From Escherichia coli (GTDB lineage: Bacteria > Pseudomonadota > Gammaproteobacteria > Enterobacterales > Enterobacteriaceae), in assembly GCF_003334315.1 (NCBI RefSeq), contig NZ_QOWR01000015.1: DNA of 64,000 bases, one strand, 5' to 3'. The position numbers were made by a program, and so were the translations under genes. The notes under the pieces are model-generated. The model was not told the DNA's origin. It saw nothing but the letters and a program-made list of their open reading frames with translations, and made no database searches. Positions 21,065 through 55,985 of the stretch are shown piece by piece. Each line of letters begins with the position of its first letter. Position 1 is the first letter of the stretch.

Positions 21065-22163
21065 TCATAACCCTGCTTTCAAACTTGCTTCGATAAATTG
21101 ATCCAGGCTGCCGTCCAGCACGGCCTGCGTGTTGCGGGTTTCTACCCCGGTGCGCAGATCTTTAATGCGGGAGTCATCAAGGACATAAGAACGAATCTGG
21201 CTGCCCCAGCCGATGTCGGATTTGTTATCTTCCATCGCCTGTTTCTCGGCATTTTTCTTCTGCATCTCCAGTTCATAAAGCTTCGCTTTCATCTGCTTCA
21301 TGGCCTGGTCTTTGTTCTTGTGCTGGGAACGGTCGTTCTGGCACTGGGTCACGATCCCGGTCGGGATGTGGGTAATACGCACCGCAGATTCGGTACGGTT
21401 AACGTGCTGACCGCCCGCGCCGGACGCGCGATAAACGTCAATGCGCAGATCCGCCGGGTTGATTTCGATATCAATATCATCATCAACTTCCGGATAAACA
21501 AACGCGGAGCTGAACGACGTGTGGCGACGACCGCCGGAGTCAAACGGGCTCTTACGCACCAGGCGGTGAACGCCAGTTTCTGTACGCAGCCAGCCGTAAG
21601 CGTAATCGCCGGAGATTTTGATCGTCACGGATTTAATACCCGCCACTTCACCTTCCGACTCTTCGATGATTTCAGTTTTGAAACCACGCGATTCTGCCCA
21701 GCGCAGATACATACGCTCAAGCATGCTCGCCCAGTCCTGTGCTTCCGTACCGCCAGACCCCGCCTGAATATCGAGGTAGCAGTCGGCGCTGTCATATTCG
21801 CCAGAGAACATACGGCGGAACTCAAGCTGCGCCAGTTTTTCTTCCAGGGCGTCGAGTTCAGCAACGGCTTCGTTAAAGGTTTCTTCGTCGTCAGCTTCTA
21901 CAGCCAGTTCCAGCAGACCAGAAACATCTTCCAGCCCCTGTTTCATTTGGTCGAGGGTGTCGACAACGGCTTCGAGGGAGGAACGCTCTTTACCCAGCGC
22001 CTGTGCGCGTTCGGGTTCGTTCCAGACATCCGGCTGTTCCAGCTCGGCGTTTACTTCTTCCAGACGCTCTTTCTTGGCGTCGTAGTCAAAGATACCCCCT
22101 AAGAACGTCGGAGCGTTCCGTGAGGTCCTGAATGCGATTATTTACCGGATTAATTTCAAACAT
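21065..22163 (-). CDS. prfB: Peptide chain release factor 2, expressed through a programmed +1 frameshift
   Basis: Frame-0 start ATG at 22161-22163 encodes [25 protein letters not shown] then hits in-frame TGA (22086-22088); the +1 frame continues from 22087 to the stop at 21065 and contains the GGQ motif. Confidence 0.95.
22085..22100 (-). promoter_or_regulatory. prfB autoregulatory +1 frameshift site
   Basis: Minus-strand sequence AGGGGGTATCTTTGAC: internal Shine-Dalgarno-like element, then the CUU slippery codon and in-frame UGA. Confidence 0.9.
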
Positions 22164-22204
22164 GGTCTGATTTCTTTTATTGAGCTAGTCAAAATGCGGT
22201 GATA

Positions 22205-22238
22205 AGAGCGGGATTGTACCCAATCCACGCTCTTTTTT
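22205..22238 (+). terminator. Terminator-like hairpin with plus-strand T-run between recJ and prfB
   Basis: About 12-bp stem (AGAGCGGGATTG / CAATCCaCGCTCT) followed by TTTTTT on the plus strand, 16 bp downstream of the recJ stop. Confidence 0.4.
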
Positions 22239-22253
22239 ATAGAGAAGATGACG

Positions 22254-23987
22254 CTAAATTGGCCAGATACTGTCGATGATAATTTGCAGGCTGCGGTTGC
22301 CGCGAAACTCGTTGATATCGAGCTTATAAGCCAGTTGCACTTCGCGCACGCCGTTATCCGGCCAGAGGGCGGTATCGACATTAAAAGCAATACCATCCAG
22401 CAGTGGACCGCCGCCGACCGGTTCGACCATCACCTTCAAATGACGTTCGCCCACCAGCCGCTGTTGCAGCAGACGGAAATGACCGTCAAACAGCGGCTCC
22501 GGGAACATCTGCCCCCACGGGCCAGCATCGCGCAGCAGCTGCGCCACTTCCATGGTCATTTCGGCCGGGCTTAACGGACCGTCTGATACCACTTCGCCTT
22601 GCAATAGCGAAGGGTCCAGCCACTCAGTAACCAGTTCGCCAAACCGTTGTTGAAAGAGTTTGAATTTATCCTCTTCCAGCGACAAACCCGCCGCCATCGC
22701 ATGACCGCCAAACTTCAGCATCATGCCAGGGTAGAGTGTGTCTAATCGCTCCAGCGCATCACGCATATGCAGCCCCTGAATGGAGCGACCGGAACCTTTC
22801 AGCGTACCGTCACCTGCTGGCGCAAACGCGATAACCGGACGGTGAAAACGCTCTTTGATGCGCGAAGCCAGAATACCAACAACGCCCTGATGCCATTCGG
22901 GGTGATACATTGCCAGCCCGCCGGGTAGCGTGTCACGGCTGCGCTCCAGTTTCTCGCACAGGGTCAGGGCTTCAATTTGCATTCCTTGTTCGATCTCTTT
23001 TCGCGTCTGGTTTAGCGCATCGAGTTCATTTGCCAGCACGCGCGCTTCGCCGATGTTGTCGCACAACAACAGCGCCACACCGACGGACATATCGTCCAGT
23101 CGTCCGGCAGCATTGAGACGTGGCCCCAGCGCAAAACCTAAATCGCTGGCGGCGAGTTTTTGTGCATCACGGTTTGCCACTTCAAGCAGCGCTTTAATCC
23201 CCGGACGGCACTTTCCGGCTCGGATGCGACTCATCCCCTGCCAGGTCAGAATGCGATTATTAGCGTCCAGCGGCACGACGTCCGCCACTGTCCCCAGCGC
23301 GACCAGATCCAGCAGTTCTGCCAGGTTAGGAATTGCGATGTTACGCTCATCAAACCAGCCCTGATCGCGCAAAAAGGTGCGCAGCGCCAGCATCAGATAA
23401 AACGCCACACCCACGCCTGCCAGTGATTTCGACGGGAAATTACAGTCGCGCAAGTTAGGGTTAATGATCGCTTCCGCTGCGGGTAATGTGTCGCCCGGCA
23501 AATGGTGATCGGTAACAATAACCGGGATGCCCAACGAGCGAGCGTGCTCAACTCCCGCATGGGAGGAAATACCGTTATCCACCGTGACAATTAACTGCGC
23601 GCCACGGGCATGGGCCTGATCGACCACTTCCGGGCTTAAGCCGTAACCGTCTTCGAAACGGTTTGGTACCAGGTAGTCGATATTGCTGCAACCAAGCGAG
23701 CGCATCGCCAGCACGCTTAGAGCCGTGCTGGTGGCACCGTCGGCGTCGAAATCACCGACCACAATAATCCGCGTTCCTTCGCGAAAAGCGTTGTAAAGGA
23801 TCTCAACGGCCTTTTCGACGCCGCTCAGTTGCTGCCAGGGCAGCATACCTTTAACACTGCGTTCCAGTTCTTGCGCACTGCGTACTCCCCGGCTGGCGTA
23901 TAAACGGCGCAGCAAGGGAGGCAATTCCGCGGGCAAGTCTGCCGTTTCATCGACTTCACGGCGACGAAGTTGTATCTGTTGTTTCAC
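22254..23987 (-). CDS. recJ: Single-stranded-DNA-specific exonuclease RecJ
   Basis: 577-aa ORF with DHH phosphoesterase motifs. Confidence 0.95.
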   Translation of the reverse strand: MKQQIQLRRREVDETADLPAELPPLLRRLYASRGVRSAQELERSVKGMLPWQQLSGVEKAVEILYNAFREGTRIIVVGDFDADGATSTALSVLAMRSLGCSNIDYLVPNRFEDGYGLSPEVVDQAHARGAQLIVTVDNGISSHAGVEHARSLGIPVIVTDHHLPGDTLPAAEAIINPNLRDCNFPSKSLAGVGVAFYLMLALRTFLRDQGWFDERNIAIPNLAELLDLVALGTVADVVPLDANNRILTWQGMSRIRAGKCRPGIKALLEVANRDAQKLAASDLGFALGPRLNAAGRLDDMSVGVALLLCDNIGEARVLANELDALNQTRKEIEQGMQIEALTLCEKLERSRDTLPGGLAMYHPEWHQGVVGILASRIKERFHRPVIAFAPAGDGTLKGSGRSIQGLHMRDALERLDTLYPGMMLKFGGHAMAAGLSLEEDKFKLFQQRFGELVTEWLDPSLLQGEVVSDGPLSPAEMTMEVAQLLRDAGPWGQMFPEPLFDGHFRLLQQRLVGERHLKVMVEPVGGGPLLDGIAFNVDTALWPDNGVREVQLAYKLDINEFRGNRSLQIIIDSIWPI

Positions 23988-28179: not shown

Positions 28180-28365
28180 TTTATCGCATCAGGCATTTAT
28201 CGCCTGATGCGACGCTGGCGCGTCTTATCATGTCTGGGATTTGATGCCTTTATCACAACAGGGACGAGGCCCGTAGATCGGATAAGGCGTTCACGCCGAA
28301 TCCGGCAGTTGTGCTCCGATGCCTGATGCGACGCTGGCGCGTCTTATCAGGCCTACAAAGGCATA
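28180..28365. repeat. REP/BIME cluster (three REP units)
   Basis: Two copies of GCCTGATGCGACGCTGGCGCGTCTTATCA (28202-28229 and 28321-28348) flank an inverted REP (CGGATAAGGCGTTCACGCCGAATCCGGC). Confidence 0.7.
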
Positions 28366-55879: not shown

Positions 55880-55985
55880 GTCATGCCGGATGCGGCGTGA
55901 ACGCCTTATCCGGCCTACAAAAACCTGCAAATTCAATATATTGCAGGATACGTGTAGGCCTGATAAGCGTAGCGCATCAGGCAAT
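55880..55985. repeat. REP pair (BIME) downstream of fbaA
   Basis: GCCGGATGCGGCGTGAACGCCTTATCCGGCCTAC and inverted GTAGGCCTGATAAGCGTAGCGCATCAGGC. Confidence 0.7.

Follow-up and report, generated by a model that had tools for sequence, protein, structure and literature searches.

The prfB gene in the 64-kb window (the whole stretch of Escherichia coli DNA that was analysed) is interrupted by a UGA near its start. We are almost certain that the E. coli RF2 gene here carries its canonical site for autoregulation by programmed +1 ribosomal frameshifting. A sequence-only reading had made the same identification on the basis of established knowledge, and appropriately so. The sequence features were all present, the fused protein was RF2, and the RefSeq annotation carries the note 'programmed frameshift'. 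No sequence evidence against the canonical reading of prfB was found. prfB is the classic gene which uses recoding to gauge how active its own product is. The site has been known for about 40 years and is routinely annotated; it is the type example itself and adds no new knowledge. The +1 frameshift of E. coli prfB was reportedly first described by Craigen et al. in 1985 and by Craigen and Caskey in 1986.

Anatomy of the prfB frameshift site

The elements of the site, all on the minus strand of the window, are the following.

22161-22163, minus: ATG initiation codon of prfB, base equivalent to the RefSeq prfB CDS start
22089-22163, minus: frame-0 segment of prfB, codons 1-25, the last being CUU (Leu25), from translation
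22095-22100, minus: internal Shine-Dalgarno-like AGGGGG, codons Arg22-Gly23, located by script
22092-22094, minus: 3-nt spacer UAU, the Tyr24 codon, which occupies the E site while CUU occupies the P site
22088-22091, minus: slippery run CUU_U, made up of the Leu25 codon and the initial U of UGA
22088, minus: T skipped in the +1 shift
22086-22088, minus: premature in-frame stop UGA, frame-0 codon 26, read by RF2 alone
22085, minus: C 3' of UGA, giving the weak termination context UGAC; it ends the Asp26 codon GAC of the +1 frame
21065-22087, minus: +1-frame segment of prfB, codons 26-365 and the stop TGA at 21067-21065
21550-21542, minus: SPF, within the +1-frame segment
21427-21425, minus: Ala246, within the +1-frame segment
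21415-21407, minus: GGQ, within the +1-frame segment
Minus-strand letters: ...AGACC ATG TTT GAA ATT AAT CCG GTA AAT AAT CGC ATT CAG GAC CTC ACG GAA CGC TCC GAC GTT CTT AGG GGG TAT CTT TGA C TAC GAC GCC...

Translation of frame 0 from the ATG at 22161-22163 yielded 25 residues and a UGA stop at 22086-22088, exactly as the sequence-only reading had it. The CUU and the internal Shine-Dalgarno-like AGGGGG which it had placed ahead of UGA were located at 22091-22089 and 22100-22095, respectively. AGGGGG lies exactly 3 nt 5' of CUU and 6 nt 5' of the stop. The +1 frame is open from just past a TAA (22144-22142) to the TGA at 21067-21065. The marks of the known site, a UGA near the prfB start with CUU before it and C after it and AGGGGG at its spacing, were all present. 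The AGGGGGNNNCTTTGAC motif occurred a single time in the 64-kb window with one mismatch tolerated, and 0.08 occurrences were expected from shuffles. That AGGGGGNNNCTTTGAC sits at the exact junction of two frames which jointly encode complete RF2 is far beyond chance.

A comparison with the known RF2 autoregulatory site had been suggested as a check, and every element proved to be identical. The E. coli prfB site of Craigen et al. (1985) likewise has a 25-codon leader with AGGGGG, the UAU spacer and CUU UGA C, followed by the body of RF2 in the +1 frame. There was no difference at the site, and annotated E. coli chromosomes contain the DNA with 100% identity.

An Rfam search of 21000-23000 (E ≤ 10) returned Erse noise as the sole match, with 9.9 bits where the gathering score is 138. 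The absence of an Rfam family at the prfB site was expected because the signal is linear and unstructured. Equally, a downstream stimulatory RNA structure was not found: the 111 nt from the site folded with a z-score of -0.63, and 53 of 200 shuffles folded equally well. In dnaX an internal Shine-Dalgarno-like stimulator assists a -1 shift on A_AAA_AAG, and a downstream hairpin is required. In contrast to dnaX, prfB shifts +1, has a stop-codon pause as the sensor and lacks a significant downstream structure. Nevertheless, the ribosome likewise changes frame at a defined slippery sequence in E. coli dnaX (-1) and pheL (+1), both established E. coli frameshift cases (PMC5373646).

The two frames jointly encode RF2

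Joining 22163-22089 to 22087-21065, with T 22088 skipped, resulted in a protein of 365 amino acids. The NCBIfam model TIGR00020 (prfB) scored this fused protein with 525.9 bits at a curated cutoff of 370, and the alignment covered residues 12-362 in one colinear stretch which crosses the junction. The RF1 models reached 305.7 and 303.8 bits and stayed under their cutoffs of 400 and 423. The Pfam domains were PCRF (31-219) and RF-1 (228-337). The RF2-type stop-codon recognition tripeptide SPF was at 205-207 and the catalytic GGQ at 250-252; thus, the RF2 body including GGQ is indeed in the +1 frame, as had been stated. Comparisons with PDB 1GQE (E. coli RF2) and with the PDB entries of K-12 RF2, many of them ribosome complexes, gave 364 of 365 identical residues, contiguous through L25-D26. 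The residues of the frame-0 leader are the N-terminus of the deposited E. coli RF2 sequences.

Codon 246 of prfB (window 21425-21427, minus strand) is GCG, i.e. Ala. The RF2 of the E. coli K-12 laboratory lineage, in contrast, has Thr246. Because prfB encodes Ala246 rather than Thr246, the window is not from a K-12 strain. The Ala246 'B-type' RF2 is fully active and is present in most E. coli; Thr246 RF2 terminates poorly at UGA (PMC5373646).

Alternatively, ribosomes might start anew within the locus, with AGGGGG as a conventional ribosome-binding site; the products would then be the 25-residue peptide and, separately, an RF2 that lacks its N-terminus. The strong Shine-Dalgarno character of AGGGGG is in keeping with this. 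However, the +1 frame contains no ATG, GTG or TTG from the TAA at 22144-22142 up to Met73 (21946), some 150 nt past AGGGGG, and the sole nearby TTG (22089-22087) is in the third frame. Further, residues 1-25 are joined to residue 26 onward in the RF2 family model and in the deposited E. coli RF2 sequences, and the RGYL or RGSL leader ends are conserved across phyla among the matches listed (see below). Initiation within the +1 frame was rejected, as a start codon is absent there, and two separate products are scarcely credible. With no start codon in the +1 frame before Met73, RF2 can therefore not be made without a shift, as the programmed frameshift provides.

Conservation of the interrupted frame

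The 1.3 kb around prfB are 100% identical to many E. coli chromosomes, and the region is present as a single copy per genome in 5426 complete genomes. A 71-nt region around the site was found in all of them (5426/5426), and the 30-nt core TCCGACGTTCTTAGGGGGTATCTTTGACTA was unchanged in 5417. The commonest nearby variant in E. coli is the synonymous exchange of TAC for TAT at Tyr27. The sequence-only reading had named a single uninterrupted frame on re-sequencing as the outcome that would speak for an error; 5417 of the 5426 complete E. coli genomes keep the interrupted core. The interruption of E. coli prfB is real and conserved.

For a view across species, one genome per species was scanned with the query AGGGGGTNNCTTTGAC, and at least 120 loci were obtained. 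As these loci were picked by the motif, they show the co-location of motif and RF2, not its prevalence. Among the matches listed, the N-terminus of RF2 carried AGGGGGTNNCTTTGAC in 103 of 120, and the +1 frame matched E. coli RF2 with 26-89% identity. In these 103 listed RF2 matches the alignment of the +1 frame began at residue 26 of E. coli RF2 (median; range 26-32), and GGQ was present in 90 of the 90 listed ORFs that were complete within the locus. The frame-0 leaders of the listed matches had mostly 21-27 codons and ended in RGYL or RGSL. The spacer codon of the 103 listed RF2 matches was most commonly TAT (62), followed by TCT (22), TAC (11) and others. The prfB sites of other bacteria share the Shine-Dalgarno-like element, the 3-nt spacing, CTTT, TGA and C about 21-27 codons into the gene, whereas the spacer codon and the leader sequence vary. 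The taxa among the matches listed included Gammaproteobacteria, Bacillota and Bacteroidota, with Vibrio, Halomonas, Chromatium, Bacillus, Staphylococcus and Streptococcus, and further Bacteroidia, Chlorobiota, Omnitrophota and Rickettsiales.

A premature stop in prfB has been reported in 8,164 of 12,753 species genomes (64%), with a near-invariant AGGGGG, 3-nt spacing, CTTT, TGA and following C (PMC12421855). There, the AGGGGG consensus was derived from more than 8,000 genomes, CTTT was termed the 'slippery sequence', and the site was absent in some lineages such as Actinomycetota and Thermotogota (PMC12421855).

In-frame and variant prfB alleles in other E. coli assemblies

Nine of the 5426 genomes were without the exact 30-nt core. 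Six were characterised: three have four Gs in the G run (G4), two have two Ts in the T run (TT) and one has six Gs (G6). The equivalent window positions of the variant sites are as follows.

22095-22099: G run
22088-22090: T run

A 1-nt deletion places prfB in frame in at least five of the 5426 complete E. coli assemblies, NZ_CP024650.2, NZ_CP029973.1 and NZ_CP031355.1 (G4) and NZ_CP008805.1 and NZ_CP010304.1 (TT). The strains with GGGG for GGGGG are BH100 substr. MG2014, 51008369SK1 and O145 RM8995-C1. In the G4 alleles prfB is in frame as ...LRGIFDY..., the UGA is gone, and all three are annotated with the uninterrupted CDS WP_105166511.1. CTTGAC for CTTTGAC was present in O157:H7 SS17 and SS52, which are cattle-faeces assemblies; here, prfB is an uninterrupted CDS whose product is identical to the normal one, WP_001701073.1. 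The genes next to prfB are intact in the five assemblies.

The G4 genomes belong to three unrelated backgrounds, diverged by 0.8-2.8% from the window over 40 kb. In their 40-kb neighbourhoods, no gene has a further indel that changes its frame and none is annotated as a pseudogene, which spoke for a real mutation. A change from G5 to G4 was counted three times at prfB in about 5420 genomes; the controls were recJ with 1 in about 5047 and uacT with 0 in 4399, and the excess was not significant, being too small to set real mutations apart from a background of homopolymer errors. It appears to us doubtful, if conceivable, that RF2 autoregulation was really lost in nature, and repeatedly so, in the five in-frame alleles; the other explanation is an artefact of assembly or curation. 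If the losses were real, they would parallel the compensatory deletions in Pseudomonas fluorescens, where experimental evolution yielded real 1-nt deletions of such kind (preprint 10.64898/2026.01.08.698412).

The G6 allele is that of strain A15 (NZ_CP028759.1), with six Gs for five in the internal Shine-Dalgarno run (equivalent window 22095-22100). In RefSeq its prfB is still a 'programmed frameshift' which yields WP_105166511.1, and the adjacent recJ is flagged as 'frameshifted'. A15 is probably a homopolymer-error-prone assembly. The case illustrates that annotation pipelines can paper over errors at the prfB site.

Such cases bear on the question whether the frame break in the window is itself a sequencing or assembly error, or the mark of a pseudogene, the true gene being one uninterrupted frame. 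Single-base homopolymer errors at this very spot are known in public assemblies, as exemplified by the G6 allele beside a 'frameshifted' recJ, and five assemblies do have prfB in frame by a 1-nt deletion. Against this stand the 5417 of 5426 independent complete E. coli genomes which share the exact 30-nt core of the window with the frame interrupted, and the 103 distant species, among the matches listed, in which the interrupted architecture is repeated. Moreover, the break coincides exactly with the conserved CUU UGA C, and AGGGGG precedes it at the distance that is conserved. A pseudogene is implausible because RF2 is an essential termination factor. The census of E. coli genomes effectively refuted an error or a pseudogene, and we consider either as vanishingly improbable.

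Proposed mechanism of the programmed frameshift

The mechanism of the programmed +1 frameshift is established; it is carried over here from published work on identical or near-identical E. coli sequences. Ribosomes would initiate at the ATG at 22163 and read 25 codons. At this point CUU (Leu25) would occupy the P site and UGA, in the poor context UGAC, the A site. When RF2 is abundant, termination at UGA would be expected, and the 25-residue peptide would be released. When RF2 is scarce, the ribosome would pause at UGA. AGGGGG would pair with the anti-Shine-Dalgarno tail of 16S rRNA and would destabilise the tRNA in the E site. In competition with RF2, the peptidyl-tRNA-Leu would slip one base forward, from CUU to UUU. 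GAC (Asp26) would then enter the A site, and the +1 frame would be read to the full 365-residue RF2. Since abundant RF2 tips the balance towards termination and scarce RF2 towards the shift, RF2 would set its own level.

The shift efficiency on the same E. coli sequence is 20-50%, dependent on the level of RF2. Weiss et al. are said to have described the pairing of AGGGGG with the 3' end of 16S rRNA in 1988. RF2-dependent +1 shifting at this sequence was reportedly demonstrated by Craigen and Caskey in 1986, by Curran and Yarus in 1988 and by Marquez et al. in 2004; work by Weiss in 1987 and by Curran in 1993 is said to belong to the primary references on the mechanism of the prfB shift. A competition between RF2 and the slip has been described, together with a loss of the E-site tRNA promoted by AGGGGG pairing at short spacing (PMC12421855). 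By ribosome profiling of the native E. coli locus, the shifted fraction was estimated as about 28% in K-12 and as 21% where RF2 is of the B type; in the absence of RF3 it was about 47% (PMC5373646).

The frame could in principle be restored by RNA polymerase rather than by the ribosome, i.e. by transcriptional slippage on the G5 or T3 run. Homopolymer runs are certainly present at the site. Yet the runs of 5 G and 3 T are below the about 8-9 or more A/T required for productive transcriptional slippage. Also, the conserved RF2-specific UGA, the C following it and the exact Shine-Dalgarno spacing fit a translational RF2-sensing mechanism only, and in vitro as well as in vivo work credits the ribosome (Craigen & Caskey 1986; Weiss 1988; Marquez 2004). 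Transcriptional slippage at prfB is therefore very unlikely, and we favour the ribosomal +1 shift.

Annotation of prfB and its neighbourhood

On identical DNA, the RefSeq annotation of prfB joins two pieces into a CDS of 1099 nt (75 + 1 + 1023). The mechanical ORF list at its default threshold contained 21065-21946 only, a frame of 293 amino acids from the first ATG of the +1 frame. The remark of the sequence-only reading that the ORF track reports only the downstream frame thus holds at the default length threshold; the 25-aa ORF at 22086-22163 appeared in the list once the threshold was lowered to 20 amino acids. The 293-aa ORF was listed alone because the +1 frame has no ATG, GTG or TTG ahead of the ATG at 21946. 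With naive ORF calling, prfB comes out split or truncated, as a 293-aa fragment from Met73. Therefore, the two pieces have to be joined manually or by a pipeline that is aware of frameshifts, such as that of RefSeq.

Two long ORFs run antisense on the plus strand, one of 334 amino acids over prfB (21098-22102) and one of 471 amino acids over lysS (19655-21070). Both are most likely spurious because they overlap almost completely with well-supported genes on the opposite strand.

The RefSeq gene order on identical DNA is xerD-dsbC-recJ-prfB-lysS, with idi convergent. Two features follow prfB.

19538-21055, minus: lysS (lysine--tRNA ligase), the second gene of the prfB-lysS pair, separated from the prfB stop by 9 nt; from the ORF and from RefSeq on identical DNA
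19498-19519, minus: terminator-like G+C-rich hairpin with a T tail just past lysS; from a consensus scan, a pattern match only

From the 9-nt spacing and prior knowledge we infer that prfB and lysS are co-transcribed. The GAGGA Shine-Dalgarno sequence of lysS overlaps the TGA of prfB (TTATGAGGAACCAACATG; window 21055-21067, minus strand). Because of this overlap and the 9-nt gap, translation of lysS is probably coupled to ribosomes which finish the +1 frame. If so, the output of LysRS would be tied to prfB frameshifting.

Upstream, the spacer between recJ and prfB (22195-22235) contains, just past the recJ stop, a hairpin that is long but imperfect (minus strand: AAGAGCGTGGATTG-GGTA-CAATCCCGCTCTT). 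In the scan its inner stem was terminator-like on the plus strand. The hairpin may be the recJ terminator. A consensus scan of 19300-22500 found no sigma-70-like promoter in the recJ-prfB spacer; the sole match in this range was at 21795-21767, inside prfB, i.e. one found with 2.3 expected by chance.

Elsewhere in the window four Rfam matches were above the gathering score, all on the plus strand: 6S/SsrS RNA at 41863-42046 (139.8 bits), a Sib antitoxin RNA at 42695-42845 (133.8 bits), with the ibsC toxin gene at the equivalent place in other genomes, naRNA4 at 28276-28353 (75 bits) and ES036 at 55919-55961 (47.3 bits). These are ordinary E. coli features.
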